NCBI GenBank assembly: GCA_963770895.1
Contig: CAVYRF010000002.1
Coordinates: 992,001-1,056,000, forward strand
Direction of reading: 5' to 3'
Length of the DNA stretch: 64,000 bases
Origin: an uncultured Acidobacteriota bacterium
Lineage (GTDB): Bacteria > Acidobacteriota > Thermoanaerobaculia > Multivoradales > UBA5704
In this document: piece by piece, positions 1,092-55,544 of the stretch
Numbering within the stretch: position 1 is the first letter of the stretch
Layout of the letters: each line of letters begins with the position of its first letter
The notes under the pieces: model-generated
The model's database searches: none
Seen by the model: only the letters and a program-made list of their open reading frames with translations
Told to the model about the DNA's origin: nothing
Made by a program: the position numbers and the translations under genes

Positions 1092-3158
<2,067 letters not shown>

Positions 3159-3274
3159 TTTCCAGCGGGGCCATCCGGGATGTCTGGCAGTGTCCCGGCG
3201 TGGGGGGCGGCGGCTGGCCGGCCGACCGGCGGGCGCCGGCCGGGCACGGCCTGCCGTCGGGGCGAGGTTTGCGC

Positions 3275-3445
3275 TCAGCAGACCGGCAGGCAGCTGGCGT
3301 GCGGATAGGTGACCGTACAGTTGGGCGTGCAGCTGGTGGCGGGGCCGCTGATCACGCCGGCGGCGACGTCCTTGAGCTGCATCGGCGCCAGGTGGCGAAG
3401 GGTTTCGCGGTTGAGGGTGATGCGCTGCACCTTGTTGTTTTTCAT
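3275..3445 (-). CDS. RiPP/lanthipeptide-like precursor, 56 aa (MKNNKVQRITLNRETLRHLAPMQLKDVAAG-VISGPATSCTPNCTVTYPHASCLPVC)
   Basis: Hand translation; ATG at 3445 with AAGGGG SD-like motif upstream; TGA at 3275-3277; LNRETL leader, AG cleavage-like site, core with 4 Cys and 7 Ser/Thr. Confidence 0.8.
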   Translation of the reverse strand: MKNNKVQRITLNRETLRHLAPMQLKDVAAGVISGPATSCTPNCTVTYPHASCLPVC

Positions 3446-3518
3446 GGCATGCCCCTTTTCGGTGAAGATTCATTCCTGAATAGGAACATCACTATATTCC
3501 AGGCGCACGCGGCGGCGC

Positions 3519-3524
3519 TAGAAT
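3519..3524 (+). promoter_or_regulatory. -10 hexamer TAGAAT, 6 nt before the GTG at 3531 (leaderless-type promoter)
   Basis: TAGAAT-gacgcc-GTG with no SD. Confidence 0.5.
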
Positions 3525-3530
3525 GACGCC

Positions 3531-5086
<1,556 letters not shown>

Positions 5087-5090
<4 letters not shown>

Positions 5091-5572: not shown

Positions 5573-7720
5573 GTGGCCCCTTCCAAGGACCCTGCCCGTC
5601 CCCTTGCCGGCAACGGCGCCAACGGCGCCGGCGCGGCCGGCGCCGAAGGTGCCGCCGATCCCGCGGGCGGCGGCCCACCCAGCCTGCCGCACGCCCTGAT
5701 CGGCACCGCGGGCCACATCGATCACGGCAAGACCCGGCTGCTGCTGGCGCTCACCGGCATCGACTGCGACCGCTGGGCGGACGAAAAGGCGCGCGGCATC
5801 ACCATCGACCTCGGCTTCGCGCACCTGGCCGAAGCGGGGGTGCAGCTCGGTTTCGTCGACGTCCCCGGCCACGAGCGGTTCCTGCACAACGCCCTGGCGG
5901 GGCTCGGCGGCATCCGGGTGATGCTGCTGGTGGTGGCCGCCGACGAAGGGGTCAAGCCGCAGACCCGCGAGCACCTGGCCATCTGCTCGCTGCTCGGCAT
6001 TCCGGCGGCGGTGGTGGCGCTGACCAAGGCCGACCTGGCCAGCGCCGACCTGCTGGAGCTGGCGCAGCTGGAGATCGAAGACCTGCTGGCCGCCACCCCC
6101 TTTGCCGGCGCGCCGGTGCTGCCGGTGTCCAGCCTGACCGGGCAGGGCATCGCGGAGCTCAAGTCCGTGCTGCTGGCCGCGGCGGCGCGCCACGCGGTGG
6201 CCGCCGACCCGCGGCTGCCGGCGCGCCTGCCGATCGACCGCGCCTTCCACCTGCGCGGCCTGGGCGTGGTGGTGACCGGCACGCTGGCCGGCGGCGCGGT
6301 GCGCGTCGGCGACAGCCTGGAGCTGCTGCCGCCCGAAGCGGGGGTCGACGGCGCCGTACGGGTGCGCGCCATCCAGGTCCACGGCCAGGCGCGCCAGGAG
6401 GCTCTCGGTGGCGAGCGCACCTCGCTGCAGTTGAGCGGCGCGCCGCTCGAAGCCCTGCGGCGCGGCCAGCAGCTGGGCACCGTGGGCGCCTTCGCCGCCA
6501 CCACCAGCCTGCTGGCGCGCGTGCAGCTGCTGCCGGGGGCGGCGCCGCCTGGCGGCGGCGGCTTCATGCCGGTGCGGGTCCACCTGCATACCGGCCAGGC
6601 GCTGGGGCGGATGCGCTTTCTGCGTGCGCCGGCCAGCCCGGCGCACAGGGCAGCGGCAACGGCCGGGCCGGAGGCTACGACAGGGCCGGCGGCGACGGCG
6701 GGAACGGCGGCGGCGGAAGCGGCAGCAGCCGAAGCCGGCCAGGCACTGGCCGAGATCCGCCTGCAGACACCGCTGGCCGCGGTGCGCGGCGACCGGCTGA
6801 TCCTGCGCCGGCCGTCGCCCGCCGCGACGCTGGGGGGCGGCGAAGTGCTCGACCCGCGCTGGCGCCGCCACCGCGGCGCGGCGCTCGCCATCGCCCTGCC
6901 CGCCCTCGGCGGCGACGTCGATCGGGCGCTGGCGTTCTGGGCGCTGGAGGCCGGCGAAGGCGGGCTGGACGCGGACGCGGCCGGGCGCCGGCTGGGCGTG
7001 CCGCCGGCGCGGGCCGCGGCGCGCCTGGCCGCGCTGGCCAAGGGCGCCCGGCTGATCGAAGTGGCGGAGGGGCCGGGCCACGGCCGGGTGTGGATCGCTC
7101 CCGCCGCGGTGCAGCGCGTCGTCGAGCGCGCCCGGCGGGTGCTGGCGGACTACTTCGCGCGCCAGCGCCTGGCCGACGGCTGCCCCAAGGCGGAAGCGGT
7201 GCGGCGGATCCTGCGCGGCCGCGCCGCCGACCTGGCGCCGGTCTACCTGGCGTGGCTCGCGGCGCAGAAGGTGCTGGTGGTAAGCGGCGACCAGGTGACG
7301 CTGCCGGGGCGCAGCGCCCAGCTCACCGGCGACGAATCCAAGCTGGCGGCGGCGGCGCTGGCGGAGTTCGAACGCGGCGGCCTGACGCCCCCCTCGCCGG
7401 GCGAGGTGCGCCAGCTGCTCGCCGCCAAGCCGCAGATTCTGGAAGGCGTGCTGCACCACCTGGTGACCCGCGGCAAGCTCCTGCGCCTGCCGGGGGGGCT
7501 GATCGTCGCCGCCAGCGCCATCGCGGAGCTGCGGCGCGAGCTGCTCGCCACCGGATGGGAGCGCTTTTCGGTGCCGCAGTTCAAGGAGCGCTTCAACTTC
7601 AGCCGCAAATGGGCCATCCCGTTGCTGGAGCACCTGGACAGCGCCGGGATCACCCAACGCGCCGGCGACGAGCGCCTGGTGCTCAGGACGCCGCAGCCGG
7701 CGGCAGCGCCGGATCGCTAG
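5573..7720 (+). CDS. selB: Selenocysteine-specific elongation factor
   Basis: IGTAGHIDHGKT, EKARGITIDLGF, DVPGHERF; C-terminal winged helix SRKWAIPLLEHLD. Confidence 0.93.
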   Translation: MAPSKDPARPLAGNGANGAGAAGAEGAADPAGGGPPSLPHALIGTAGHIDHGKTRLLLALTGIDCDRWADEKARGITIDLGFAHLAEAGVQLGFVDVPGHERFLHNALAGLGGIRVMLLVVAADEGVKPQTREHLAICSLLGIPAAVVALTKADLASADLLELAQLEIEDLLAATPFAGAPVLPVSSLTGQGIAELKSVLLAAAARHAVAADPRLPARLPIDRAFHLRGLGVVVTGTLAGGAVRVGDSLELLPPEAGVDGAVRVRAIQVHGQARQEALGGERTSLQLSGAPLEALRRGQQLGTVGAFAATTSLLARVQLLPGAAPPGGGGFMPVRVHLHTGQALGRMRFLRAPASPAHRAAATAGPEATTGPAATAGTAAAEAAAAEAGQALAEIRLQTPLAAVRGDRLILRRPSPAATLGGGEVLDPRWRRHRGAALAIALPALGGDVDRALAFWALEAGEGGLDADAAGRRLGVPPARAAARLAALAKGARLIEVAEGPGHGRVWIAPAAVQRVVERARRVLADYFARQRLADGCPKAEAVRRILRGRAADLAPVYLAWLAAQKVLVVSGDQVTLPGRSAQLTGDESKLAAAALAEFERGGLTPPSPGEVRQLLAAKPQILEGVLHHLVTRGKLLRLPGGLIVAASAIAELRRELLATGWERFSVPQFKERFNFSRKWAIPLLEHLDSAGITQRAGDERLVLRTPQPAAAPDR

Positions 7721-8247: not shown

Positions 8248-11200
8248 ATGTTTGCGGTGCTCGTGCACCCGGCGCTCTACCAGCGTTTGCGGCGGGGCTC
8301 GCCGGCCTTGCGCTCGCGGGTGCACAAGACGCTGCTGCGGCTGCGCGACGGCCGCTGGGGAGGCGGCACGCGGGTCAAGCGGCTGCGCGGCGCCTCCCAC
8401 GCCGTCTACGAAGCGCGCACCGACGGCGGCGACCGCATGCTCTTCACCATGGCGCGCCTCGCCGCCGGCGGCGGCGACCCGGCGGGCGGCGACGCTCTCC
8501 ATTTGCAGATCTGGGACCTGGTGGAACACGACGACGTCGACCGCGCCGCCCGGCGCACCCGCTCGCCCGAGGCCGGGTTCCTGGCCCTGGCCGCGCTCGA
8601 AGAGTTCGAGATCAGCGAGCCGCCGCCCTATCCCGACGCTCCCTTCAGCGCCTGGAGCGGCGCGGGCGACCAGGACCCGCTGCTGCGCTTCCTGCTGCCC
8701 GACGCCGACCCCGCGGCGGCGGCCGGCCCCGCCGGCGACTCCGCAGCCGACGCCCGGCTTGCCGCGGCCGCCGGCGGAAGCGGGACCGGGGCGGCGCCGC
8801 GCAACGTCCGCTGGTTCCAGCTCGACGCGGCCTGGCTGGCGGGCGAAGCGCAGTTCCAGCAGCTGCTCGACCGCGCCGGCGACCAGCTGGAGCTGAAGCT
8901 GGACGCCGAGCAGCTCCGCATCCTGCGGGCGCCGGGCCCGCTGCTGCTCGCCGGCAGCGCCGGCAGCGGCAAGACCACCCTGGCCGTGCACCGTCTGGCC
9001 GCTGCCGCCCTGGCGCCCGGCGACGGCCGCGCGCTGTACGTCTCGTGCAGTCCGGCCCTGGTCGAGCGCGCCCGCCGGCTCTACGACGACCTGACGGCGC
9101 TGCGCGGTGGCGACGCGGCAGCGTTGCGCGATGGCGACGCGGCGGCGCGGCGCCCCGACTTCTTCACTTTCGACGACCTGTACGCCACCGTGGTGGGGCG
9201 CGACTTCGAGCGCCACCGCTCCCGCCTGATGAGCGAAGCGGCCTTCGAAGAGTGGTTCCGCCGCGCCGGCCGGCCGCTCGATCCGGCGCTGGTGTGGCAG
9301 GAGGTGCGCAGCATCCTCAAAGGCGCCTGCCTGGCCCCCGGCAAGAGCGCCATGCTCGACCGCGACCAGTACTTTGAGCTGGGCCGCAAGCGCGCGCCGC
9401 TCTTTGTCGACCTGCGCCCGCAGATCTACCGCATCGCCGAGCGCTACCAGCAGTGGCTCGCCGAAGAAGACCGCCTGGACTCGATCGATCTCTGCCGCCT
9501 GGCCCTGGGCGAGCTGCGACGGCGCCGCGGCGGACCCTACGACGTGGTGATCTGCGACGAGGTGCAGGACCTGACGGAACTGGAAGTCGGTTTCGTGATC
9601 GCTCTGTCGGCCCGCACCGACCTGGCCGGCGTGATGCTGGCCGGCGACGCCCAGCAGGTCCTGAACCCCAGCGGCTTCCGCTGGGCCGAGGTCCGCCGCC
9701 TGGCCGCGCGCCACGCCCGCCAGCAGGCGCCGCCCGCCGTCCTGCACCTGCGCGACCCCGCCCGCTCCACCGCGCCCCTGTGCGCCTTCGCCAGCGCCCT
9801 GTCCACCCTGCGCCGCGACGTCTTCGGCCGCGGCGACGGCGAGCAAGGCGAAGACGAGCTGCCCGCCACCGCCCCCGGCCCCTTCCCGGTCCAGATCTTC
9901 GGCGATGAGGCGGCCGTCGTGGCATCGATCGTCGCGGTCGCCACCCCCGGCGCCAACGACGCGGGCCACGAGCGCGGCTTGGATCGCGGGAACCCAGCGC
10001 ATTGCGGGTACGACGCCGACGACGCCGGCGGTTGCGCCGTGCTGGTGGCGGATGCCGTCACCGCCCAGGCGCTGCGCGAGCGTCTGCCCGGATGCGCCGT
10101 GCTGACGGTGGCCCAGGCCAAGGGGCTGGAGTTCGACACCGTGGTGATGTGGCGGCTGCTGGCGGCGGACGCCGACCTGGTGGAGCGCCACCTGCGCGGC
10201 GAAGCGCGCGGCGAGCGGGAGGCGCGCTTTGCGCGGCTGCTGCGCTGGCTCTACGTCGCCGCAACGCGCGCCCGGCGCTGCCTGGCGGTCTACGAGGGCC
10301 AGGCGCCGCACCCCTTCTGGGGCCGCGCGCCGCTGGCCGCCGCGCTCGACCCTCTGCCGGCGCAGCACCTGCCGCGCGTCTTCCGCGCCGCCGCCGATCC
10401 GGAGGAGTGGGAGCGCCAGGGCGACTTTTTCGCCGCCCAGGACCTGCCGCGCCAGGCCGCCGAGTGCTACCGCCGCGCCGGCCTGGTGGAGCGCGAAACC
10501 GCAACCCTGGCGCAAGCCGACGAGGCGCGCCAGGATTGGGCGGCGGCGCTCGCCCGCTGGCAGGCGCTGGGCGGCACGGCACCGGCCCGCGAAGCGCCGC
10601 TGCTCGCGCGCCTGGGCCGCTTCGCCGCCGCCGCCGAGCGCTACCGCGCCGCCGGCCAGCGCGCCGCGGCGCTACGCTGCGACCTCCTGCTGCTGGAAAG
10701 CCGCGGCGCCTGGACCGACGCCGCCCGCGGCTGGGAAGACCTGGGCGACGACACGCGCGCCGCCCGCTGCTGGGCCGCCGCCGGCCAACGACGCGCCGCG
10801 ACCGCCGCCACCCTGCGCACCGCCGAAGCCGCCGGCGACTGGCCCACCGCCGCCGCCGGCTGGCTCGACCTCGGCGAGCACGACCGCGCCGCCCGCGCCT
10901 TCACCGCCGCCGCCGACCCCCGCGGCGCCGCCCACGCCGCGGCCCTGGCGCACCGCGAAGCCGGACGCTGGCCCGCCGCCGCCGCCGCCTTCCGCCTGTG
11001 CGGCCGCCGCCAGGACGCGCACCACTGCCTTGCCCAAGCCTTCGAAGCCGCCGGCCGCCCCCGCCAGGCAGCCCGCCACTGGCTGCACCTGGGCGACCCC
11101 GCCAGCCATCGCCGCGCCGTCGATCGCCTGGTCGAAGCCGGCGCCTGGCTCGACGTCGCCCGCCTGGAGCCCGCCGCACCGCCCCCCGCAACCGAATCCG

Positions 11201-11811
11201 CCGGCGCCAAGCCCGGCAGCCGCGTCCTGACCCACATCGAGCAGCTGGTGGCTGACCGGACAAGCGAGCGGGAGGATGGCAACGCTGCCGTCCTGCTGGC
11301 CACACGGAGGGAGGCTCTGACGCCGCTGCTGCCGGAGGTGCCTTGGTTTCTGGCGGGCGCGGAGGAGCGGCGGGCGCGGGCGGAGTTGCAAGCGGTCGAG
11401 CAGCTCGAGCTGCGCCGGCGCGCCATCGCGGCGGAACGGGCGGGGGCTTGGAGCCGCGCCAGCCGGTGCTGGCGGCGGGCGGGCGACCTGCGGCGGGCTG
11501 ACGGCGCGCGCGACCGGCGGATCGCCGGACTTGCCGATCCGCTGCGCCAGGTGCGGGCCTGGTGGCTGACGGGCGACCCTGCCAGCCGCCGGCGTGCCGC
11601 GGCGTTGGCCGCCGGCGCCGCGGCGCGCGGGCCGCTGCTGACTGTCGCCGTCGCGGCGCTGGCTGCTGAAGGTGAGGGCCGCTGGCAGACGGCCGCGGAG
11701 CTGTGGGCGCGGATCGCGCGGCGCGGCGACGTGATGCGCTGCATGGCCCGGGTGGCCGCATTCCGTGACGAGGCGCTGCCGCCGGCCCACGGCGGCAGGA
11801 GGCGGTCCTGA
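8248..11811 (+). CDS. UvrD/Rep (SF1) helicase with putative N-terminal RelE/ParE-like domain and C-terminal TPR-like solenoid
   Basis: GSAGSGKT, DEVQD, AGDAQQ, TVAQAKGLEFD, LYVAATRAR; N-terminal VYEAR..GDRMLF..IWDLVEHDDV; repeated W..AA..(W/Y/F) helices. Confidence 0.82.
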   Translation: MFAVLVHPALYQRLRRGSPALRSRVHKTLLRLRDGRWGGGTRVKRLRGASHAVYEARTDGGDRMLFTMARLAAGGGDPAGGDALHLQIWDLVEHDDVDRAARRTRSPEAGFLALAALEEFEISEPPPYPDAPFSAWSGAGDQDPLLRFLLPDADPAAAAGPAGDSAADARLAAAAGGSGTGAAPRNVRWFQLDAAWLAGEAQFQQLLDRAGDQLELKLDAEQLRILRAPGPLLLAGSAGSGKTTLAVHRLAAAALAPGDGRALYVSCSPALVERARRLYDDLTALRGGDAAALRDGDAAARRPDFFTFDDLYATVVGRDFERHRSRLMSEAAFEEWFRRAGRPLDPALVWQEVRSILKGACLAPGKSAMLDRDQYFELGRKRAPLFVDLRPQIYRIAERYQQWLAEEDRLDSIDLCRLALGELRRRRGGPYDVVICDEVQDLTELEVGFVIALSARTDLAGVMLAGDAQQVLNPSGFRWAEVRRLAARHARQQAPPAVLHLRDPARSTAPLCAFASALSTLRRDVFGRGDGEQGEDELPATAPGPFPVQIFGDEAAVVASIVAVATPGANDAGHERGLDRGNPAHCGYDADDAGGCAVLVADAVTAQALRERLPGCAVLTVAQAKGLEFDTVVMWRLLAADADLVERHLRGEARGEREARFARLLRWLYVAATRARRCLAVYEGQAPHPFWGRAPLAAALDPLPAQHLPRVFRAAADPEEWERQGDFFAAQDLPRQAAECYRRAGLVERETATLAQADEARQDWAAALARWQALGGTAPAREAPLLARLGRFAAAAERYRAAGQRAAALRCDLLLLESRGAWTDAARGWEDLGDDTRAARCWAAAGQRRAATAATLRTAEAAGDWPTAAAGWLDLGEHDRAARAFTAAADPRGAAHAAALAHREAGRWPAAAAAFRLCGRRQDAHHCLAQAFEAAGRPRQAARHWLHLGDPASHRRAVDRLVEAGAWLDVARLEPAAPPPATESAGAKPGSRVLTHIEQLVADRTSEREDGNAAVLLATRREALTPLLPEVPWFLAGAEERRARAELQAVEQLELRRRAIAAERAGAWSRASRCWRRAGDLRRADGARDRRIAGLADPLRQVRAWWLTGDPASRRRAAALAAGAAARGPLLTVAVAALAAEGEGRWQTAAELWARIARRGDVMRCMARVAAFRDEALPPAHGGRRRS

Positions 11812-13511
11812 CCGCGCCCGCACAGCACCCCGATCCAGCGGCCGTTCGCCGCCTGATCCTGGGCACCGCATCGCCGGTCGAGGCGCGGCAGGTCGTTCGC
11901 CACCTGCTGACCGGCTGCGGCCACTGCAATCGCTTCGCGCACGCCGCCGGCGCCGGCCCGACGGGCGGTGACGACGCCGCGGCGGCGTCTGATTCCGCAT
12001 CCACCGCCGCCCGCGATGCCGCCAACGCCCGCGCCCGAGGCTCGGCTCCCTCCCCGGCCCGCTCTCCCTCCCCGTCCGATTCCGCCGGCGATCCGCGGGA
12101 CGCCTCCAAGTACGACCAGGTGTTTGAGCGCATGAAGGAGCGCCTGCGCTCCGCGCCGCTCGGCGACTCGCCGGCCCATGACGCCGATGAGGACGCGCCG
12201 GAGGCGCCCGCGGCAGCCGGCGATGGGCGACCAGGCGCAGAAGCGGCACTGCCCTCGCCGGGTGCCGCGCCGTCGGGCACCCTCGCCATCTCCACCGCCC
12301 CCATCATCCGGCCCGGCCGCCCGGCGCCGGGCGCCGCGGACCTGGCGCGGCAGACGCTAGCCGCCGGCGGCGCCGCCGGGGCGGGAGCCGGCGCCGGCGC
12401 CCACGAGCTGTACGCCGAGCTTTTGGGGCACGACGCGGTGCAGGCCCTGACGCAGGTGCAAAGCACCCGGCGCTACGCCTATCTGGCGCTGTGCGAGCTC
12501 CTGCTGCGCAAGAGCTTCGGCCTGGAAAACGGCACGACGGCGGCGGCGGGCGTGGGCGACGCGGCGGCGATGGCGGCGCGCTGCGTCGTGGCGGCGGCCG
12601 AGGTCGCGGAGCTGCTCGACCTGGAAGTCTACGGCGCGCCGGTCGTCCAGGACGTGCGCGCCATCGCCTGGACCTATTTCACCGGCGGCGAGAGCATGCA
12701 GGAGGACATGCGCACCGCCGAGGTTTCGCGGCGCCTCGCCGCGCGGCTGCTCGCCGGCAGCGCCGACCGCGCACCCGGACGGCCGTCGCTGCTCGCGGCG
12801 CAGGCGGCGCTCGCCGGACATTGCGGACATTTTGGCGAGTCGCTGCGCCTGCTCACCGGCGCGGCCGGGTGCTATCGCCGCACCGATCAGGCTCACCTGG
12901 CTGCCCGCTTCCTGCTCAAGAAGGGCATGGCGCTGGGCAACGCCGGCGAAACCCAGGCCGCCGTCCGCCTGCTGTGGCGCGGCCTCGACACCATCGAGCC
13001 GGCGCGCGAGCCGCGGCTGCTGGTGTGGGCGACCCACAACCTCGCGTGGTTCCTGCACGAAGCCGGGCGCACCGGGCAGGCCGCCTCGTGCATCGAAGCC
13101 GCCCGCAAGCTCTATCGCGCGGCGCGCGACCGCCGCGAAATGTCGCGCTTGCGCTGGCTGGAAGGCAAGCTCGCGGCCGACTTCGGCACCGCCGAAACCG
13201 CCCTCGCCGAGGCCCGCGACGGCCTGGCGCGCGAGGGCCTGGCCTACGAGGCGGCGCTGGCCGCGATGGATCTCGCCGTGCGCTATGCCGGCGAGCGGCA
13301 GGCGGCGCGGATGCGCCAGCAGGCCGACGGCATGCTGGCGCTGTTCCGGTCGGATAGCATGTACGGGGAAACGGTCTTCGCCATGCGCTCCTTCCGCGAG
13401 CACGGCGGCGGCGACGACCCCAGCGACCTGTTGCGCGACCTGACCGCCTACCTCGACCAGGCCCGCCGGCCGCAAAACCCCAAGGCCCTGGCAGCCAGCA
13501 TTCCGCCCTGA
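11808..13511 (+). CDS. Zinc-finger (ZAS-like H-x24-H-x4-C-x2-C) + TPR-like protein; probable CTG start (track start is 12120)
   Basis: Frame open from 11769; AGGAGG at 11797-11802 then CTG at 11808 overlapping the helicase TGA; VVRHLLTGCGHC; REPRL and RLRWLEGK shared with the paralog at 50227. Confidence 0.72.
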   Translation: MTAPAQHPDPAAVRRLILGTASPVEARQVVRHLLTGCGHCNRFAHAAGAGPTGGDDAAAASDSASTAARDAANARARGSAPSPARSPSPSDSAGDPRDASKYDQVFERMKERLRSAPLGDSPAHDADEDAPEAPAAAGDGRPGAEAALPSPGAAPSGTLAISTAPIIRPGRPAPGAADLARQTLAAGGAAGAGAGAGAHELYAELLGHDAVQALTQVQSTRRYAYLALCELLLRKSFGLENGTTAAAGVGDAAAMAARCVVAAAEVAELLDLEVYGAPVVQDVRAIAWTYFTGGESMQEDMRTAEVSRRLAARLLAGSADRAPGRPSLLAAQAALAGHCGHFGESLRLLTGAAGCYRRTDQAHLAARFLLKKGMALGNAGETQAAVRLLWRGLDTIEPAREPRLLVWATHNLAWFLHEAGRTGQAASCIEAARKLYRAARDRREMSRLRWLEGKLAADFGTAETALAEARDGLAREGLAYEAALAAMDLAVRYAGERQAARMRQQADGMLALFRSDSMYGETVFAMRSFREHGGGDDPSDLLRDLTAYLDQARRPQNPKALAASIPP

Positions 13512-17439: not shown

Positions 17440-17712
17440 ATGAAGGCCACTTTCGAGATTCCTGACGATCTCTTCGTCGAAGTGAAGGTGGAGGCGGCCC
17501 GCCGTCACAAGAAGCTCAAGGAGCTGGTGCCGGATCTGGTGCGCGCGGGCCTGCGGGCGCAGCAGGCCGCCGGCCCCGTTTCGCGGCGGGACAGCGAGCG
17601 GTGGCTGGAGGAGTGGGTACGACTTGGCCAGGCGGCGCTCAAAGACCGGCCGCCAAGGCCGACAGCCACCGAGATCCTTGCCGCGGATCGCCGGCGCCTT
17701 GACGATCGCTAG
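17440..17712 (+). CDS. VapB-like antitoxin
   Basis: MKATFEIPDDLFVEVKVEAA...LKELV; directly abuts the PIN gene. Confidence 0.75.
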   Translation: MKATFEIPDDLFVEVKVEAARRHKKLKELVPDLVRAGLRAQQAAGPVSRRDSERWLEEWVRLGQAALKDRPPRPTATEILAADRRRLDDR

Positions 17713-18315
17713 GTGCTCGTCCTTGACGCAAACGTCTGGGTCGCCGCCTTCGATCCATCGGACAGATTCCACGATGAGAGCGTGGCGGTGTTTGCCACGG
17801 CGGCGCGCGGCGGCCTGCGGCTGGCAGGTCCGGCGTTCCTGGCGCTGGAATCGATTTGTGCCCTCAATCGGCGCCTGGGCAATCCGACGTTCGCGGCAGC
17901 GGCCGCCGCGCAGATCGCGAACCATCCGGCGCTGTACCTTCAGCCACTCGACGAAGAGCTCCTTGCTGACGCTCAACGACTTGGGGTCGAACGCCGATTG
18001 CGGGGCGCCGACGCGCTCTACCTGGCGACTGCGGTGCGGTTGGGTTGCCCGCTCCTGTCCTGGGATGCGGAGCTGCAGTCCCGCGGCGGGGCGTGGTCGC
18101 CGCGCGATTGGCTGGAGCGGCAGTCAGGAGTGCAGCAGGTAGACGGCGGCGAACAGGGCGAGCATGGTGAAGATGAGGGCAAGGTTGCCGGCGGCGGCCA
18201 GGATGAGGCCGAACCAGGCGGCCAGGCCGGCGCGGCCGGCGCGGCGCAGGTCGCGGCGGGCGATGAGCTCGCCGGTGAAGGCGCCGACGAAGGGGCCGAG
18301 CAGGACGCCGGGTAG
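17713..18315 (+). CDS. VapC-like PIN-domain toxin (C-terminal extension overlaps the antisense gene)
   Basis: LVLDANVWV, D.FH, LRGADALYLATA, LLSWDAEL. Confidence 0.82.
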   Translation: MLVLDANVWVAAFDPSDRFHDESVAVFATAARGGLRLAGPAFLALESICALNRRLGNPTFAAAAAAQIANHPALYLQPLDEELLADAQRLGVERRLRGADALYLATAVRLGCPLLSWDAELQSRGGAWSPRDWLERQSGVQQVDGGEQGEHGEDEGKVAGGGQDEAEPGGQAGAAGAAQVAAGDELAGEGADEGAEQDAG

Positions 18316-18630
18316 GGAGAAGAAGAGCCCTGCCAGGCCGCCGATGAAGGCGCCGGCGAGGGCGAGCCGGCTGGCGCCGACGCGGCGGGCGCCGTGGCGC
18401 GCGGCCCACAGGTCGATGACGAAGTGGCAGAGGGCCAGGATGCCCAGCAGCGTGAGGGTCACCCAACCGACTTTCTGAAAGTCGTCGATGGACGCGGCGA
18501 CGAGCAGCCCCGCGAAGACCAGCGGCGCGCCCGGTATCGCCGGGACGACGGTGCCGGCGATGCCGCCGGCGACCAGCGCGCCGGCGAGCAGCCACAGCAG
18601 CGGCGCCATCTGCGGATCGGGCGTCGCCAT
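18124..18630 (-). CDS. DUF456 family membrane protein
   Basis: GIAGTVVPAIPG, GARRVGASR, LGPFVGAFTGEL; alternative GTG start at 18654. Confidence 0.85.
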   Translation of the reverse strand: MATPDPQMAPLLWLLAGALVAGGIAGTVVPAIPGAPLVFAGLLVAASIDDFQKVGWVTLTLLGILALCHFVIDLWAARHGARRVGASRLALAGAFIGGLAGLFFSLPGVLLGPFVGAFTGELIARRDLRRAGRAGLAAWFGLILAAAGNLALIFTMLALFAAVYLLHS

Positions 18631-18650
18631 GGCAACCCAGGCCAGGACGG

Positions 18651-19391
18651 TCACACGCCCGCCTCGGCGCCACGCTGTTGGCGCCTCGCGGTCAGCCGGC
18701 GGTAAAGGCGGTCGAAGCGGCGGCGGTGCAGGTTGGCGTCGGCGAAGTCGTAGTGGTTGGGGAGGATGCGGCCAGGGGCCAGGGCGGCCACCCGGTCCAG
18801 GCTGGCGGGGATCAGGCGGGGGACGCTGTTGAGGATGGGCGGCGGCAGGTTGAGATTGAAAAAGTAGCTGGCAAAGAGGTCGCCCGCGAACAGCAGGTCG
18901 TGCCGCTCGCTGTAGAACCCGCAGTGTCCCTCGGTGTGGCCGGGCAGGTGGACGACGCGCAAGCCGCCCCAATAGGGCAGCAGGTCGCCGTCTGCGAAGT
19001 GGCCGGCGAGCGGCGCCGCGCGATAGCGCAGCACGGCGCGCCCGAACGCTTCCAGCCGCCCGCACCAGCGGCTCACGCCCTGGTAGGGGTAGGTGCCGCG
19101 GACGTGCAGCTCCTCCTTTTCGTGGGCGAAGGCCGGGGCGCCGGTCCAGCGGCAGATCGGCGACAGGTTGCCGGCGTGGTCCAGATGGCCGTGGGTGAGC
19201 AGGACGGCCTGGACCGCCTGCGGCGCCAGCCCGAGCCGGCGCAAGCGGCGCCGCAGCCCGCGCACTTCGCCGTACAGGCCGGTGTCGATCAGGCAGGCGC
19301 CGGTATCGTCCACCAACAGGTGGCAGATGCCCAGCACCCCGCGGATGGGATACAGACCGGCAGGGAGCGGCGGCACCATCGCGCGCCTCAC
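18651..19391 (-). CDS. MBL-fold metallo-hydrolase
   Basis: LIDTG, THGHLDHAG, PGHTEGH, FAGD. Confidence 0.88.
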   Translation of the reverse strand: MRRAMVPPLPAGLYPIRGVLGICHLLVDDTGACLIDTGLYGEVRGLRRRLRRLGLAPQAVQAVLLTHGHLDHAGNLSPICRWTGAPAFAHEKEELHVRGTYPYQGVSRWCGRLEAFGRAVLRYRAAPLAGHFADGDLLPYWGGLRVVHLPGHTEGHCGFYSERHDLLFAGDLFASYFFNLNLPPPILNSVPRLIPASLDRVAALAPGRILPNHYDFADANLHRRRFDRLYRRLTARRQQRGAEAGV

Positions 19392-20231: not shown

Positions 20232-21398
20232 TCAGGCGAGCACGGCGGCCAGCCGCTCCAGGCCTTCGAGCAGCTGGGCGCGCGAGCAGGCAAAGGAAAT
20301 GCGGATGTGGTTGTCGGCGCCGAAGGCGGCTCCGGGCACCACCGCCACCTGCGCCTTGTCGAGCAGGAATTCGGTGAACTGGACCGATCCCTGCCGTCCC
20401 GGCCCAAAGGCGCCCGACACGTCGGGGAAGGCGTAAAAGGCGCCGAGCGGCGGCTGGCAGCGCACACCGGGGAGCTGGTTGAGGCGGGGGATGAGCATCT
20501 CGCGACGGGCGCGGTATTCGGCGATCATCCGCTCGACGTCGGGTTCGGCGTCGCGCAGGGCGGCCAGGGCGCCGACCATGGCGAAGGAGGTGGGATTCGA
20601 CGTGGCGTGGCTCTGGATGTTCTCGATCGCGTTGACCAGCGGCTTGGGGCCCAGCAGGTAGCCGATCCGCCAGCCGGTCATGGCGTAGGTCTTGGAAAAC
20701 GACCCCACCAGGACGACGGTGTCGGGAAATTCCGCGGCCAGGCTGGCGGCGCTGGCGTGGGGCTGGTCGTAGACGAAGCGCTCGTAGGTTTCGTCGGAAA
20801 TGACGATCAGGCCGCGGTTGGCGGCGAAGCGCACGACCTGGCGCAGGTCCGCGGCGGCGATGACGCCGCCCGTCGGGTTGCACGGCGAATTGAGCAGGAT
20901 GGCCCGCGTGCGGTCGGTGACCGCCGCCAGGATGGCGTCCGCGTGCTGGCGGAAACCGTCGGCGCCGACGGTTTCAAAGGGCACCGGCACCGCGCCGGCA
21001 AAGCGGATCTGCTCGCCGAAGCTGACCCACGAGGGATTGGGCAGCACCACTTCGTGGCCGGGCTCGAACAGCGCCAGGGCCAGTTGGAAGAGCGCCGCCT
21101 TGCCGCCCACCGTGACCACCGAGTCCTGAGCCTGCCAGGGAGCGCCGTAGCGGTCCCGCGCCCAGGCGGCGAGCGCCTGCCGCAGCTCCGGCGTGCCGCT
21201 GCCCGGCGTGTAGCGGGTGAACCCGGCGGCCAGCGCCTGGCAGGCAGCTTCGACGGCCACCGCCGGGGAGTTGAAATCCGGCTCGCCGGCGCCGAAATCG
21301 ACCAGGGCGACGCCCTGCGCCTTGAGCGCGGCGGCGCGGCGCGTGACCGCCAGGGTCGCGGATTCGGCAATGCCGGCGGCTCTGGCAGAGAGAATCAC
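20232..21398 (-). CDS. PLP-dependent class I aminotransferase (aspartate aminotransferase-like)
   Basis: GEPDF, NSPCNPTG, SDETY, SFSKTYAMTGWRIGY. Confidence 0.92.
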   Translation of the reverse strand: MILSARAAGIAESATLAVTRRAAALKAQGVALVDFGAGEPDFNSPAVAVEAACQALAAGFTRYTPGSGTPELRQALAAWARDRYGAPWQAQDSVVTVGGKAALFQLALALFEPGHEVVLPNPSWVSFGEQIRFAGAVPVPFETVGADGFRQHADAILAAVTDRTRAILLNSPCNPTGGVIAAADLRQVVRFAANRGLIVISDETYERFVYDQPHASAASLAAEFPDTVVLVGSFSKTYAMTGWRIGYLLGPKPLVNAIENIQSHATSNPTSFAMVGALAALRDAEPDVERMIAEYRARREMLIPRLNQLPGVRCQPPLGAFYAFPDVSGAFGPGRQGSVQFTEFLLDKAQVAVVPGAAFGADNHIRISFACSRAQLLEGLERLAAVLA

Positions 21399-21516
21399 CG
21401 GCGAATGCTATCACCGCTGCGCGCCGCTGCCGGGCGGAGGCGGCGGATGCTATTGTGCGGCAAGGGGCTGCCGCGCGCCCGCGCCACGCCGACGTCGCAT
21501 CCCAAGGACAAAGGTC

Positions 21517-23640
21517 ATGAAGCCATCCGTTTTGCACCGTCTTCCCGCCCGCCGCAGGGCGCTTGCCGTCGCCGCGGCGGCGCTCGCCGTGGCGGCCGCC
21601 GCAGCTTGCGGTCCGGGCGTCGCCACCGCCTCGGCCGCCGGCATCCCGCGCCCCGAAAAAGCCAAGCTGGCGCTGCAGGCGGACGCCTCCTCCTACCCCG
21701 CCGGCGCCGCCGCCGGGATCTCGGCGCAGGTGTCGATCGAACCCGGATGGCACGTCAACAGCCACACGCCGACGTTCGACTACCTGATCCCCACCGCCCT
21801 CGAAATCGAGATGCCGGCCGCCTGGCCGGCGGCGGAGATCCAGTACCCGCCGGCACAGAAGAAGAAGTTCACCTTTGCCGAGGTGCCGCTGTCGGTCTAC
21901 GACGGCGACGTGACCATCCTGGCCGTGATCCACATCCCCGAGGGCAGCCCGCAGGGGCGCTTTCCGCTGCACGCGCGCCTGAGCTACCAGGCCTGCAACG
22001 ATTCCCAATGCCTGCCGCCGGTGAGCGTCGCCGGCCAGGTCTCGATCACCGTCGGCGGTCCAGCCGCCGGTGCCGCCGGCAGCGCCGCGGCGCCGGCCGC
22101 CGCCACGCCCACCGCGTCGACCGCATCGACCGCATCGACCGCTGCAACCACCGCGACCGCACCCGTCGCACCAGACGCACCGGCCGGCCTGGCCACGGCG
22201 CACGGCACGGCCGCGGCATCGGCGCAACCGCTGCTGTCCGCGCATGCCGCCGGCGGCGATGGCGCGGCGCCAACGGCGCCCGCATCGGCAACGACCGCAA
22301 CGACTTCGACAACGCCGCCGCCGCCGGCCCCCAAGGCCGCGGCGCCGCTTTCGGCGCGCACGCTGGCCGGCATGCTGCTGGTGGCGGTGCTGGGCGGTCT
22401 GATCCTCAATGCCATGCCGTGCGTGCTGCCGATCCTGTCGCTCAAGGTGTTCGGCATGGTGCGCAGCGCCGGCCACGGCCGGTCGGAAGTGACGCGCGGC
22501 GCGCTCGCCACCGCGGCGGGGATCCTGCTGTCGTTCCTGCTGCTGGCCGGCGCGGCCATCGCGGCGGCTGCCGCCGGCGCCGCCGTCGGCTGGGGCGTCC
22601 AGTTCCAACGCCCCGGCTTCGTCGCCTTCCTGCTGGTGGTGGTGACGCTCTTCTGCTTCAACCTGTGGGGCCTGTTCGAGATCCCGCTGCCCGGCGCGCT
22701 CGCCCGCCTGGGCGGCACCGGCGGCGCCCGCGAGGGCCTGGCCGGCCACTTCGTGTCGGGCCTGTTCGCGACCCTGATGGCGACCCCCTGTTCGGCGCCC
22801 TTCCTGGGCACCGCCATCGGCTTTGCGCTGGCGCAGCCGGCGCCGGTTATCGTCGCCATCTTCGCCGCCGTCGGTGTCGGCCTGGCCCTGCCCTACCTGA
22901 TCCTGGCCGCGGCGCCCGGCGCGGCGCGCCTGCTGCCGCGCCCCGGCCCCTGGATGGACACGCTGCGCGGCACGCTCGGCTTCGTCCTGGCGGGCTCGGC
23001 GGTATGGCTGCTGTACGTGCTTGGCGCCCAGGTCAGCCCCGAGCGGCTGGCGCTCCTGGAGGTGGGCCTGGTGCTGATGGGCCTTTGCACCTGGCTGCGC
23101 CACCGCGCCGAGCAGCAGCGCTACGCCACCGCAGACAGCCCGGCGGCGCGGCCGGCAGCCGCGGGCCGGCACGCCGTCCTCGCCGGGCTGGCCGTCCTGG
23201 TCATGGCGGTGGCCACGATCGCCGCCGCCGCCGCCGGCGGTTCGGCCGCCGCCGCGGAGGGCCGCTTCGCCGCGCGCTCCCACTCCGCCGGCCTGATCGG
23301 CTGGGTCGCGTTCGACCGCACGCGCGCCGAATCGCTGGCGGCTGGCGGCCAGCTGGTCTTCGTGGACGTGACGGCGGACTGGTGCTTCACCTGCAAGGTC
23401 AACGAGCGGCTGGTCCTGGATACGCCCGAGATCGCCGGCGCCTTCGCGCGCCATCACGTGCTGCCGATGCGCGCCGACTGGACCAACCGCAGCGACGAGA
23501 TCGCCCACTTCCTCGCCGAGCACGGCCGCTACGGCATTCCGTTCTACCTGCTCTACCGCCCCGGCCGCGACCCCTACGTGTTCAGCGAGGTGCCCACCAA
23601 GGGCACGATCCTCGCCGCCCTCGACGCCGCGACGTCCTGA
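21517..23640 (+). CDS. DsbD/ScsB-like thiol:disulfide interchange protein
   Basis: GWHVNS..YQACNDSQC; LNAMPCVLP; ATPCSAP; C-terminal TADWCFTCKVNE. Confidence 0.9.
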   Translation: MKPSVLHRLPARRRALAVAAAALAVAAAAACGPGVATASAAGIPRPEKAKLALQADASSYPAGAAAGISAQVSIEPGWHVNSHTPTFDYLIPTALEIEMPAAWPAAEIQYPPAQKKKFTFAEVPLSVYDGDVTILAVIHIPEGSPQGRFPLHARLSYQACNDSQCLPPVSVAGQVSITVGGPAAGAAGSAAAPAAATPTASTASTASTAATTATAPVAPDAPAGLATAHGTAAASAQPLLSAHAAGGDGAAPTAPASATTATTSTTPPPPAPKAAAPLSARTLAGMLLVAVLGGLILNAMPCVLPILSLKVFGMVRSAGHGRSEVTRGALATAAGILLSFLLLAGAAIAAAAAGAAVGWGVQFQRPGFVAFLLVVVTLFCFNLWGLFEIPLPGALARLGGTGGAREGLAGHFVSGLFATLMATPCSAPFLGTAIGFALAQPAPVIVAIFAAVGVGLALPYLILAAAPGAARLLPRPGPWMDTLRGTLGFVLAGSAVWLLYVLGAQVSPERLALLEVGLVLMGLCTWLRHRAEQQRYATADSPAARPAAAGRHAVLAGLAVLVMAVATIAAAAAGGSAAAAEGRFAARSHSAGLIGWVAFDRTRAESLAAGGQLVFVDVTADWCFTCKVNERLVLDTPEIAGAFARHHVLPMRADWTNRSDEIAHFLAEHGRYGIPFYLLYRPGRDPYVFSEVPTKGTILAALDAATS

Positions 23641-28970: not shown

Positions 28971-31532
28971 TCAGGCGGCCGGGAGGCCGGCGGGCTGCGG
29001 CCCCGGGCGCCCGCCACCGCCAGGCGGCCGACCGCGGCGACTCCAACGACCGCGGAGACCCCGGCGATCGCCAGCGCGGGACACCAGCGCCAGCCCGAGC
29101 GTGACGGCCAAGGCCAGCCCGCCGAGCGCCGTGCCGGCGAGCAGGCCAGGCGGCCGGTAGGCCAGGTCGACGCGCTGCACGCCGGGCGGCACCACGACAC
29201 CCAGAAAGGCGCCGTCGACGGTGATCTCGGCCAGCGGCCGGCCGCTGTCGCCGCCACTGCCGCCATTGCCGGCGCCGGCGGTATCGGCGGCCTGCGCCCG
29301 CCAGCCGTACGGACCGGCGAGCGAGGTGGCGAGCAGCCGCACGCCCGCGCCCGGCACCGCCAGCCGCGCCCATCCCGGACCCGACGCCAGCGCGCGCGCC
29401 GGCGTCACGGCGGCCGCCGGGCGGCTCGCACCCGCCCCTGCCCCTGCCGCCGGCGTGGGAGCCGCGCCGCCCAGCGGTACGCCGGCGAGCGCCGGCAGCT
29501 GGTCGCGATACACCGCCACGCGGCCGGCGTCGTCCATCCTGGCCAGCCAACCGGTGAACGCCGCCCGCTCGATCGGCTCGATCGCCGCCGGCACGAACCA
29601 GCGCGGCAGCGCCCGCGGGTTGCGGTAGACGATGAACGGCAGCAGCTCCGGTTCGTCGAGCGGCACCAGCGTCCTGGGCCGCGGCAGGTAGAGGTTGCCG
29701 ACCGCCGCGCGCACGCCCAGGAAGGACATCATCGGGTGGTCGGGATGGCGGAAGGCGGCGTAGTAGTTGAGCAGGGTGGGCGCAAACCCGCCGGCGTACT
29801 CCAGCACCTGCAAATACGAGGACGGCACCATCACCTGGTTGGTGCGGATCTCGGCGATGCCGTACGCCGGCAGCAGCGACGGGTACACCAGCAGGTCGAT
29901 GCCCACGGCGCGCCACGGCGCGCCGGCGCCGGTGGGCGCCGTCTCCCTGGCCAGCACGCGCGTCAGCGGGTTGGCCGGCAGGAACAGCTCCGGCTGGCCG
30001 CGCGGCAGCAGCCGCTCCGCCCACGGTCCGAGGTCGAGCGCCAGGGCCAGCGCCAAGACCGCCACTGCCATGCCCCGCCGCCGCGGCGCCAGCAGGGCGC
30101 CGGCCGCGAGCAGCGCCCAGCACAGCACCACCCACGCCGACCGGTCGCCCACCAGGCTGACCACCGCCGCCACCGCCAGCGCCGCCAGCGCCCGCCGGCG
30201 CGCCGCGGCCGTCAGGCGCCGCAGCAGCAGGTCGACGCCGAAGCCGCCGGCCACCGCCACCGCCAGGCTGCACACCGGCAGCAGCCGCGTGTACGCCGGC
30301 AGCCGCAGCGCCGGCACCCGCTCGACGAGCAGCGCGAAGGGCACGAAATCACCCGCCACCAGCAGCGCGGCGACGGCGAAGCCGAGGAAGGGCAGGGCGC
30401 GCCGCGCCTGCCGTCGCCGCCAGCCGACCAGCGCCACCGTGGCGCCGGCGAAGGCGACCAGGCCGGTGTAGCCCGACAGCGCGTCGACCCAATCTTCCGG
30501 GCCCTTGAACGGCTCCTGGTACGGAATCCCGTACACCCGCGGGTTGGTCGGCGCCAGCACGAACTTGGCGCTCGCCGGCACGAACCAGCTGCGCGGCGAC
30601 AGCAGCCGCGCGTCGTGGTCGGGCAGGTGCAGCGCCAGCATGTCGCGCGTGCGCTGCGCCTGCGGCAGGGCGCGCACGAACGGTAGGATGACCGGCGCCG
30701 CCAGCGCGAAACCGAGCAGCGCCGCCGCCCCCGCCGCCGCCAGGCCGCGCGGCAGGCCGGTGCGCCGCCGCCGCAGGCCGATGCCGCACGCCGCCACGAA
30801 GAGGCCGCCCGCCGCCGCGGTCTCGGGATGGGCCGACAGCAGCAGGATGGCGGTGACCACCGCCGTGGTCGCCACCGTCAGCGGCCGCGGCCGCCGGAAC
30901 AGGCGCACGCAGCCGACGGCGAGCCACGGCACCCAGCACAGCACGGTGGTATGCGGATAGAGCCCCCACGACAGCATGCCGCCGCCCAGGGTGAAGCCCG
31001 CCGCCGCCAGGCCGCTGGCGGCACGGCTGATCCCCGCCTGGCGCGCCAGGAGCCAGGCGCCCTCGCACGCCACCAGCAGCTTGAGGACCAGCACCACCAG
31101 CAGGAAGTACTGGATCGGCAGGACGCGCGACAGCATGGCGAGCGGCGACAGCACGCCCAGCAGCGGATTGATCCAGGGCGAGCTGCCGCCGTCGATGACG
31201 TCGGACCACAGCGGCAGCCGGCCGGCGCGCAACGCGTGCCGCACCTCCAGCTCCCAGGGCAGCAGCTCGTAAAAGGTGTCGCTCTGGATGATGTGGGTGG
31301 AGCGCACCACCGCCGGCGGCGCCGCCGGCAGCACCCCCGCCAGCACGCCGGTCGGCGCCAGCAGGACGTTGTCGCGGAACAGGAAGGGCGCCAGCAGGAC
31401 CAGCGGCAGGATCAGCCCAAGCGCCATCGCGCGGCGCTCCAGGCGCACGCCGAGCCCGCGCGCCAGCAGCCAGCAGAGCGCCTGGACGACGGCGAGCAGC
31501 AGACAGACTTTGAGCGGCAAGCCCAGCAGCAC
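28971..31532 (-). CDS. YfhO-like polytopic membrane protein (putative glycosyltransferase)
   Basis: LRAGRLPLW..GGS motif; many TM helices; NPRALPR; GW.A...G.V.P.G...V.L.Y.P C-terminus. Confidence 0.7.
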   Translation of the reverse strand: MLLGLPLKVCLLLAVVQALCWLLARGLGVRLERRAMALGLILPLVLLAPFLFRDNVLLAPTGVLAGVLPAAPPAVVRSTHIIQSDTFYELLPWELEVRHALRAGRLPLWSDVIDGGSSPWINPLLGVLSPLAMLSRVLPIQYFLLVVLVLKLLVACEGAWLLARQAGISRAASGLAAAGFTLGGGMLSWGLYPHTTVLCWVPWLAVGCVRLFRRPRPLTVATTAVVTAILLLSAHPETAAAGGLFVAACGIGLRRRRTGLPRGLAAAGAAALLGFALAAPVILPFVRALPQAQRTRDMLALHLPDHDARLLSPRSWFVPASAKFVLAPTNPRVYGIPYQEPFKGPEDWVDALSGYTGLVAFAGATVALVGWRRRQARRALPFLGFAVAALLVAGDFVPFALLVERVPALRLPAYTRLLPVCSLAVAVAGGFGVDLLLRRLTAAARRRALAALAVAAVVSLVGDRSAWVVLCWALLAAGALLAPRRRGMAVAVLALALALDLGPWAERLLPRGQPELFLPANPLTRVLARETAPTGAGAPWRAVGIDLLVYPSLLPAYGIAEIRTNQVMVPSSYLQVLEYAGGFAPTLLNYYAAFRHPDHPMMSFLGVRAAVGNLYLPRPRTLVPLDEPELLPFIVYRNPRALPRWFVPAAIEPIERAAFTGWLARMDDAGRVAVYRDQLPALAGVPLGGAAPTPAAGAGAGASRPAAAVTPARALASGPGWARLAVPGAGVRLLATSLAGPYGWRAQAADTAGAGNGGSGGDSGRPLAEITVDGAFLGVVVPPGVQRVDLAYRPPGLLAGTALGGLALAVTLGLALVSRAGDRRGLRGRWSRRGRPPGGGGRPGPQPAGLPAA

Positions 31533-50122: not shown

Positions 50123-50153
50123 GGGGCGCCGGCACTTGCCGGCGCTTTGTTTT
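50123..50153 (+). terminator. Rho-independent terminator
   Basis: GCGCCGGC-actt-GCCGGCGC followed by TTTGTTTT. Confidence 0.75.
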
Positions 50154-50226
50154 GCAGTTGCACACAGGGTGCGCATTCGCTAGAGTTCACGACACTGAAA
50201 TACGTTACCGTGGGAGGGAATGCCGG

Positions 50227-51718: not shown

Positions 51719-51847
51719 TTACGGCGGGCCGCACTTGATCGCGACGGAGCAGATGGGCGGGTTCGAATTGTTGCCGCCTTGCACGGTGCTGAGAAGACTG
51801 GTGAGGGTCTCCCTGTGGATCACGAGCTTCGCTGCATTCTTTTTCAT
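51719..51847 (-). CDS. RiPP/lanthipeptide-like precursor, 42 aa (MKKNAAKLVIHRETLTSLLSTVQGG-NNSNPPICSVAIKCGPP)
   Basis: Hand translation; AGGAGG SD 4 nt before the ATG; TAA at 51719-51721; RETL leader, double-Gly, core with 2 Cys and 2 Ser. Confidence 0.8.
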   Translation of the reverse strand: MKKNAAKLVIHRETLTSLLSTVQGGNNSNPPICSVAIKCGPP

Positions 51848-55354: not shown

Positions 55355-55544
55355 GGTCTGTAACTCCTTTGTACTGTAAACAGGATCAACGATTTGCAAG
55401 GCAAATCCCGAGAGCGCGGCCTGGTATTTTAGCACACGGCAAGCGGCTCACCGCCAGCGAGCGACCAGCCAGCGGGATCAAACGACCCCTCGATCGGGTC
55501 TACGAACGCGGCAGCCGCGCCGTCTATGCGCCGCCTATGCGCCG

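Follow-up and report, generated by a model that had tools for sequence, protein, structure and literature searches.

Introduction

A number of class I lanthipeptide precursors from Bacteroidetes carry a leader with an LxLxKx5L motif; many of these leaders terminate in Gly-Gly, and the clusters often include a C39 protease gene (available text of PMC7268733). Here we analyze a 56-codon open reading frame (ORF) of similar architecture, located at positions 3275..3445 (stop codon included) on the minus strand of a 64-kb window (72.9% G+C) from an uncultured Acidobacteriota bacterium (contig CAVYRF010000002.1). The window is the whole stretch of DNA that was examined. An initial annotation, made from the letters of this DNA, had proposed the ORF as a hidden lanthipeptide-like precursor with a polycyclic product. 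Our analysis identifies the ORF as a genuine orphan precursor gene and gives a slight preference to a lanthipeptide product, which is plausible.

Prochlorosin precursor genes are dispersed in the genome. In prochlorosin-type systems hypervariable cores follow a conserved double-Gly-type leader, multiple copies occur per genome, and many of them lie away from the enzyme. Their leaders are of the Nif11 type, the enzyme is a class II LanM and the hosts are cyanobacteria. Prochlorococcus MIT9313 has 30 such substrates (available text of PMC6363468). Double-glycine leaders also occur on unmodified bacteriocins and pheromones, which are exported by C39 peptidase-ATP-binding cassette (ABC) transporters. 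According to the same text (PMC6363468), the C39 protease domain of the peptidase-containing ABC transporter (PCAT) holds V-4, L-7 and L-12 of the leader in a hydrophobic groove, position -3 is nearly always Ala, and the cleavage pair is GG, GA or GS.

The class Thermoanaerobaculia, to which the window belongs, also harbors the tha/the class II lanthipeptide clusters. Here, too, a Cys-rich core stands behind a leader, and lanthionine formation has been shown experimentally; the leaders are of the mersacidin/lichenicidin type, and the precursor genes are clustered with LanM and a GMC oxidase (available text of PMC13083261). We considered ThaA and TheA as relatives of the window peptide and dropped them, since the leader, as far as the available text describes it, is unrelated to the window leader. 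The literature searched, in its available text, yielded no paper on the acidobacterial family described below and no characterized product of it.

Results

A 56-codon precursor-type gene

The ORF runs from ATG to TGA and encodes a 56-aa product (MKNNKVQRITLNRETLRHLAPMQLKDVAAGVISGPATSCTPNCTVTYPHASCLPVC) that reads as MKNNKVQRITLNRETLRHLAPMQLKDVAAG followed by VISGPATSCTPNCTVTYPHASCLPVC. Residues 1-30 form the leader (3356..3445, minus strand), in which alignment A3 revealed a conserved box and then a double-glycine-type signal. The predicted 26-aa core, VISGPATSCTPNCTVTYPHASCLPVC (3278..3355, minus strand), contains 4 Cys, 3 Ser and 4 Thr (7 Ser/Thr in all), ends in Cys and has no charged residue. 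GC content by codon position was 0.54/0.51/0.89, which is the coding pattern of this genome. A longer overlapping ORF (2760-3473, minus strand) showed a third-position GC (GC3) of only 0.52 across the peptide region, and the plus-strand frame with high GC3 over this region was interrupted by a stop.

We observed a Shine-Dalgarno-like AAGGGG at 3452..3457 (minus strand), 6 nt 5' of the ATG. The intergenic region (3446..3530), shared divergently with an NtrX-like gene, was AT-rich, with a local GC of 0.40-0.54 at 3425-3499 compared to 0.73 for the window. It contains a TATAGT at 3491-3496 (minus strand), and the promoter of the peptide gene is presumed to be located in this region. The reading frame, the ribosome-binding site, the AT-rich upstream region and the composition of the core are thus as the initial annotation had described them.

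The identical 56-aa protein was present in a public protein collection, and therefore some gene caller has predicted this ORF. Its absence from the ORF track behind the initial annotation is probably accounted for by its length of 56 aa, which would be below a 60-aa threshold for ORFs. These data suggest that the 56-codon ORF is almost certainly a real gene.

Membership in a leader family of Acidobacteriota

A leader hidden Markov model (HMM) was built from 31 relatives and no window sequence and was tested on 897 frames of the window. This leave-out model scored the peptide frame at E = 1.4e-14 (49.1 bits), and the next unrelated frame at E = 1.4. The pattern [LIVM]x[LIVM]x[KRQ]E[TS][LIV] had two matches in the six-frame translation of the window, each located early in a small ORF whose product starts MK(K/N)N.

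Homologs with a conserved leader, on whose existence the initial annotation had made its proposal depend, were found. An exhaustive HMMER (phmmer) search of 1.84 billion representative proteins gave 10 matches at E ≤ 1e-3. These comprised the query itself, eight small peptides that share its leader (P0002-P0009; 52-97 aa; best E = 1.5e-7, 57% identity) and a 1558-aa protein, P0010. The latter matched the peptide over six separate stretches (E = 9.3e-4, 31% identity) and is probably a Cys/Thr-rich repeat protein. A profile search with 33 family members as the query yielded 2577 candidates, of which 1639 proteins passed at E ≤ 1e-3 (P0001 at E = 1.4e-11). A word-index homolog search with the single peptide returned only the peptide itself, and tblastn of the peptide against plasmids returned no match.

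Several relatives from the profile search bear the NCBI name 'class I lanthipeptide [Thermoanaerobaculia bacterium]'. The sole NCBIfam match of the window peptide was NF038153 (lant_leader_L1a, class I lanthipeptide; E = 0.0018), which covered residues 1-30 and the full model length. The curated cutoff of this model was exceeded by 25 of 33 relatives, and the homology of the window peptide to relatives passing NF038153 was significant in the leave-out HMM, phmmer and profile searches. Many relatives also bear a precomputed PF28317 label (Lant_leader_dom in the protein atlas). This label is carried by the atlas clusters nearest the window peptide as well, at a score of 0.88 that serves as a lead only. 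A Pfam scan of the window peptide gave no match, with a model set that did not include PF28317 and that left PF28317-labeled relatives blank too. Its sequence places the window peptide in this leader family, which goes by the name 'class I lanthipeptide leader' in both NCBIfam (NF038153) and Pfam (PF28317).

A scan of one genome per species, for which the narrower alignment A2 was the query, recovered 19 related loci. All of them were from Acidobacteriota metagenome-assembled genomes (MAGs): 13 from Thermoanaerobaculia, five from 'uncultured Acidobacteriota' and one from Holophagales. The 19 loci contain 27 family genes, and the window contains two more that lie 48 kb apart. Tandem copies were observed in L004 and L019 (four each) and in L010 (two), and one MAG held up to six family genes on two contigs. 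Within the 20 nt 5' of the start, a purine-rich AGGAG/GGAGG-like motif was present in most of the 29 family genes.

Distribution of Cys and Ser/Thr in the family cores

We analyzed 124 unique cores and, for comparison with within-core shuffles (n = 1000), 33 representative cores with <45% pairwise identity. In alignment A3 the family cores were hypervariable, with lengths of 17-43 residues, and consisted of Cys (16%), Thr (14%), Ser (9%), Pro (9%) and other residues. Ser and Thr together were at least as numerous as Cys in 124/124 unique cores. The number of Cys per core was 3 in 2 cores, 4 in 49, 5 in 32, 6 in 29 and 7 in 12, and was odd in 46/124; whole core subfamilies retained 5 or 7 Cys. 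Among the 33 divergent cores, 18 had an even number and 15 an odd number. A weak lean toward even Cys numbers in a first set of 33 sequences (22/33, P = 0.04) was gone in the representative set (18/33).

Every Cys could be assigned its own upstream Ser/Thr in 30 of the 33 divergent cores, compared to 10.7 ± 2.6 cores in the shuffles (maximum 19 in 1000). The reverse arrangement, with a Ser/Thr downstream of each Cys, was found in only 7/33. A Ser/Thr was present within 6 residues upstream of 94.5% of the Cys in these cores, compared to 74.2 ± 3.6% in the shuffles, and this value was reached by 0/1000 shuffles. The counts of Cys and of Ser plus Thr in the divergent cores were correlated (r = 0.56). 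In each of two core subfamilies, with 38 and 36 sequences, respectively, four Cys and four Ser/Thr columns were conserved at ≥90%. Pairing of every Cys with an upstream Ser/Thr of its own is also possible in the window core, whose layout would permit four rings; the initial annotation had noted that Ser/Thr upstream of Cys allows thioether rings. A directional one-to-one Ser/Thr pattern with no even-Cys preference is predicted by lanthionine formation and is not predicted for a purely disulfide family. Collectively, the core statistics of the family favor Ser/Thr-to-Cys thioethers over disulfides.

Leader anatomy

Alignment A3 gave a highly conserved leader consensus for the family, M-K-K-x-x-K-K-L-T-L-N-R-E-T-L-R-x-L-x4-L-x2-(V/A)-A-G-G. 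The corresponding box in the window leader is I9-x-L11-N-R13-E-T-L16-R-x-L19. It matches the L-x-L-x-K-x5-L motif as I9-x-L11-x-R13-x5-L19, with conservative I/L and R/K changes. The leader had been assigned at first to a class I type known from non-Firmicutes; the motif itself is in print as L-x-L-x-K-x5-L/GG (available text of PMC7268733), whereas the window leader ends in A-G.

The double-glycine-type signal of the window leader comprises L19 (-12), L24 (-7), V27 (-4), A28 (-3) and A29-G30, and cleavage after G30 is predicted from the alignment. Among the 124 unique relatives, Glu was found at -17 in 118, and the -2/-1 pair was GG in 113, GA in 8 and AG in 3. We observed the A-G site, along with a core start of V/I-I/V-S/T, in the closest relatives P0002 and P0003 as well. 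The A-G variant is therefore conserved and not a one-off change.

The most conserved stretch of the leader spans -22 to -12 and is N-terminal of the protease-contact residues V-4, L-7 and L-12. Because this box is conserved beyond the needs of export, it is probably a handle for a second partner, a modifying enzyme. Since the leader lacks a hydrophobic stretch of the Sec type, a dedicated peptidase-ABC transporter would be required for export.

Genes around the window peptide

The peptide gene is flanked by a Hanks-type Ser/Thr kinase gene at 1092-3158 (plus strand), which is convergent with it, and by a divergent gene at 3531-5090 (plus strand) for a response-regulator (receiver)/sigma-54/HTH_8 protein. 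To the left lies a PAS histidine kinase gene that is NtrY-like (2-970). The peptide gene had originally been placed between the kinase and ntrX. The kinase is as described; the regulator is NtrX-like, since NtrX is its best NCBIfam match, but at 475 bits it is below the cutoff of 600. NtrY/NtrX-type gene pairs are usually adjacent. At this locus, the Ser/Thr kinase gene and the peptide gene are interposed between the NtrY-like kinase gene and the NtrX-like gene.

We examined the adjacent Ser/Thr kinase as a candidate class III/IV lanthipeptide synthetase and rejected it, because its LanL and LanKC matches were confined to the kinase domain and far under the cutoffs (116 vs 650 and 75 vs 575 bits, respectively). 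The protein has a family match only over residues 9-257. The remainder consists of an extended Ala/Gly/Pro-rich segment and ~150 C-terminal residues, the latter with no family match.

Between the convergent kinase and peptide genes, ~16 nt past the stop of the latter, is a G+C-rich hairpin (3208..3259, minus strand) that could weakly be read as a terminator. The 121-nt stretch containing it (3160-3280) folds at -58.1 kcal/mol and has no U-tract. The fold was no more stable than shuffles (z = -0.74). An Rfam scan gave a chance-level match only.

The second family gene and other observations

The second family gene of the window (51719..51847, minus strand) encodes a 42-aa paralog, MKKNAAKLVIHRETLTSLLSTVQGG followed by NNSNPPICSVAIKCGPP, with 2 Cys and an AGGAGG ribosome-binding site (NF038153 E = 0.056; leave-out HMM E = 0.04). 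It is convergent with the gene for a 497-aa tetratricopeptide repeat (TPR) protein (50152-51645, plus strand), which weakly resembles an NsdA-type regulator (E = 3e-5, below the cutoff). This TPR protein and another window protein (12120-13511, plus strand) were homologous to each other and, in the same BLAST cluster, to helix-turn-helix (HTH)/TPR proteins of L013 (15784-16629 and 17145-18623). The two window proteins had no family matches or only TPR matches, and one of them adjoins the second peptide gene.

We observed a signaling or transcription gene within ~1 kb of 10 of 22 family gene sites, a raw count that is uncontrolled for background frequency. These sites are the two in the window (3275-3445 and 51719-51847) and those in L003, L004, L005, L007, L009, L010, L016 and L017. 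The neighbors include extracytoplasmic function (ECF) sigma/anti-sigma factors, sigma-54 activators, histidine kinase/response regulator pairs, a Ser/Thr kinase-TPR protein, HxlR and an HTH-M78 protein. In L010, an ECF sigma factor gene and a kinase-TPR gene directly follow the family genes. A conserved upstream stretch of ~110 nt (...GGGATGTCCC...GAATCCGCATCTC...CTCTCGTGGACAAATCCGTCCCGGGATCGGAAAGCGAGCC...) is common to the family genes at 3690-3814 in L001 and at 9860-9988 and 10300-10428 in L010, and may represent a promoter or 5' leader that these genes have in common.

Biosynthetic genes of other kinds were seen near some relatives. L015 encodes a flavoenzyme of the tryptophan-halogenase family (E = 1.2e-145; 10375-12057, minus strand) 165 nt from a family gene whose core has no Trp, and L011 encodes a weaker relative of this enzyme (17479-19149, plus strand) 7 kb from its family gene. 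A nonribosomal peptide synthetase module with adenylation, carrier and condensation domains (L001 5377-9723, plus strand) begins 1.35 kb past the L001 family gene.

The window also contains a gene for a SelB-type selenocysteine elongation factor (5573-7720, plus strand) and no tRNA gene of any kind. Selenocysteine read-through at the TGA at 28971-28973, between ORFs in the same frame, was rejected; the TGA is a normal stop codon, behind which come a ribosome-binding site and another start.

Discussion

If the 56-codon ORF is an orphan lanthipeptide precursor gene, the N-terminal box of its leader would recruit the modifying enzyme. Most likely, the four Cys of the core would be joined to dehydrated Ser/Thr in (methyl)lanthionine rings. 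The genes for the LanB/LanC-type enzymes would lie at another place in the genome, the enzymes would act in trans on several dispersed precursors, and the double-glycine-type signal would lead to cleavage and export by a peptidase-ABC transporter.

A number of our results weigh against a lanthipeptide product. The window peptide scored 18.4 bits against NF038153, under the 22-bit curated cutoff, so that the scoring against lanthipeptide-leader HMMs suggested at the outset had a strong outcome with the leave-out model and a sub-cutoff outcome with the curated one. The A-G at -2/-1 is outside the published GG/GA/GS set and is rare among relatives (3/124). The leader type is not class-specific: TIGR04149, a model for GG-leader peptides modified by radical-SAM enzymes, matched 17/33 relatives at E ≤ 1, with a single relative over the cutoff of the model. 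No sigma-70-type site was found upstream of the peptide gene by consensus scan, and no sigma-54 promoter was found upstream of the family genes, where the best matches agreed at 6-9 of 11 positions and were inconsistent in position. The core statistics describe a family whose members are related, and the window peptide itself has an even Cys count of 4.

The enzymes and the exporter expected of such a system were also absent nearby. Pfam scans found no LanB, LanC, LanM, radical-SAM, YcaO or C39/ABC exporter in the 39 ORFs of the window, and none among 205 ORFs within 10 kb of the 19 related loci plus 38 of 55 gap ORFs. [quoted passage not shown] All-against-all BLAST revealed no neighbor family common to more than three loci and no RiPP enzyme among the families found, and the neighborhood Pfam scans showed no GMC-oxidase gene near any family copy. 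Class I systems encode LanB and LanC with the precursor; neither the window nor the 19 related loci do so, over a genomic view that for the window is 64 kb of a 5.83-Mb contig with 3.2 kb to the left of the peptide gene. The window peptide and its relatives are thus orphans, as no modifying enzyme is close to any examined copy, and the link to LanB/LanC therefore draws on the name of the leader family and on composition. The lanthipeptide-like precursor of the initial annotation is upheld as a leader-plus-core gene of the NF038153/PF28317 leader family with fitting core statistics. Its polycyclic product stays an inference because of the sub-cutoff score, the A-G end, the lack of enzymes nearby and the radical-SAM leader cross-matches in relatives.

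Several of these points would also fit an unmodified, secreted peptide with two disulfides, such as a signal or a toxin resembling class II bacteriocins. Its leader would serve for export and cleavage only, and its disulfides would form in the periplasm or outside the cell. The even Cys number of the window peptide, a C-terminal leader half that fits the double-glycine export pattern and the absence of a modifying enzyme nearby in all 20 genomic contexts examined agree with such a peptide. The window also encodes DsbD-type (21217-23640) and DsbA-type (54260-55435) proteins, and relatives gave weak Bacteriocin_IIc cross-matches (E 0.07-0.26). We nevertheless consider it unlikely, as the family shows no preference for even Cys numbers (18/33 even; 46/124 odd; subfamilies with 5 or 7 Cys), and Ser/Thr stand upstream of Cys directionally and far more often than in shuffles. 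Ser/Thr columns were also as strongly conserved as Cys columns, and the region of strongest leader conservation (-22 to -12) reaches past the C39 contacts. Quite unlikely, in our assessment, is another RiPP chemistry behind a generic GG-type leader, whether radical-SAM thioethers, YcaO/oxidase azoles or the work of an undescribed enzyme. We know of no requirement for Ser/Thr before Cys in azole formation, whereas the directional pattern of the family cores is a requirement of lanthionine formation. TIGR04149 cross-matches were limited to relatives, as the window peptide had no match to this model at E ≤ 10 and no locus had a Radical_SAM neighbor. LanBC was not seen near any copy, but neither were radical-SAM, YcaO or GMC-oxidase genes. 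Thermoanaerobaculia do have unusual RiPP enzymology, in which Cys-rich cores acquire thiazoles through a GMC oxidase (available text of PMC13083261). The tha/the precursors on which it acts are described there as mersacidin/lichenicidin-like, and neither LNRETL nor RETLR occurred in the text of four supplementary files of that paper, one of them truncated.

The gene may instead be a decaying or silent orphan paralog that has drifted and is neither expressed nor processed. A score under the NF038153 cutoff, a leader end found in 3/124 relatives, the lack of a recognizable promoter in the sigma-70 and sigma-54 scans and a location among housekeeping and regulatory genes could be explained in this way. 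The frame, however, is unbroken, starts with ATG behind a ribosome-binding site and has a GC3 of 0.89; the A-G site and the core start are kept in P0002 and P0003, and the leave-out HMM score is high (49 bits). Drift into silence thus appears very unlikely. Spurious ORFs are abundant at high GC, and the window contains 166 ORFs that reach 150 aa or more, with many overlaps among them, but a chance ORF in G+C-rich DNA is hardly conceivable here. It is contradicted by the codon-position GC, by a motif that was seen only twice in the window and by homology to 1639 proteins.

Compared to the Bacteroidetes class I precursors (NF038153/PF28317; available text of PMC7268733), the window peptide is similar in leader architecture and motif and in its Cys/Ser/Thr-rich core, and most of its relatives pass the curated model. 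It differs in that the host phylum is Acidobacteriota (Thermoanaerobaculia, Holophagales), the peptide itself scores under the cutoff and its leader ends in A-G. The Bacteroidetes precursors were found, according to that text, inside LanB/LanC/C39 clusters, whereas the window gene and the 19 related loci have no such genes nearby. Unmodified double-glycine bacteriocins and pheromones share with the window leader the hydrophobic residues at -4, -7 and -12 (here V27, L24 and L19), Ala at -3 and a small cleavage pair. Unlike them, the window leader has an additional, strongly conserved N-terminal box, A-G in place of GG, GA or GS, and no C39-ABC transporter nearby, and the composition of its core points to modification. 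[quoted passage not shown] They depart from it with Asn or Arg, respectively, at the Gly/Ser position, and the window core (...P-A-T-S-C-T-P-N-C...) has no Ser four residues ahead of the first Cys. Therefore, no activity can be inferred from this resemblance.

In its genomic behavior, by analogy, the family seems closest to the prochlorosin model, although the leaders, enzyme class and hosts of prochlorosins are different and the acidobacterial family has yielded no trans-acting enzyme. Thermoanaerobaculia and related Acidobacteriota could possess a prochlorosin-like combinatorial system, in which many short genes with one conserved leader and hypervariable Cys/Ser/Thr cores, scattered among housekeeping and regulatory genes, would be served by a single trans machinery, either class I LanB/LanC or an unrecognized enzyme. 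We regard this as possible and put it forward tentatively, with some doubt.

The peptide gene is a true positive that was overlooked by length thresholds and curated cutoffs (56 aa; 18.4 vs 22 bits), and it illustrates how small RiPP-type precursor genes slip past annotation. With 1639 relatives, and with all 19 recovered loci in Acidobacteriota, it represents an uncharacterized family whose heterologous expression may give access to many new scaffolds of polycyclic peptides. The location of the precursors away from tailoring enzymes, together with the directional Ser/Thr-before-Cys signature, provides a testable hypothesis of trans-acting lanthionine synthesis in soil Acidobacteriota. If a combinatorial system of the above kind exists and its machinery is class I, these bacteria, of a soil phylum that is poorly cultured, would possess a dispersed library of class I lanthipeptides. 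If these genomes hold no known synthetase, the family would point to a new thioether or other cross-linking route that operates on this leader.

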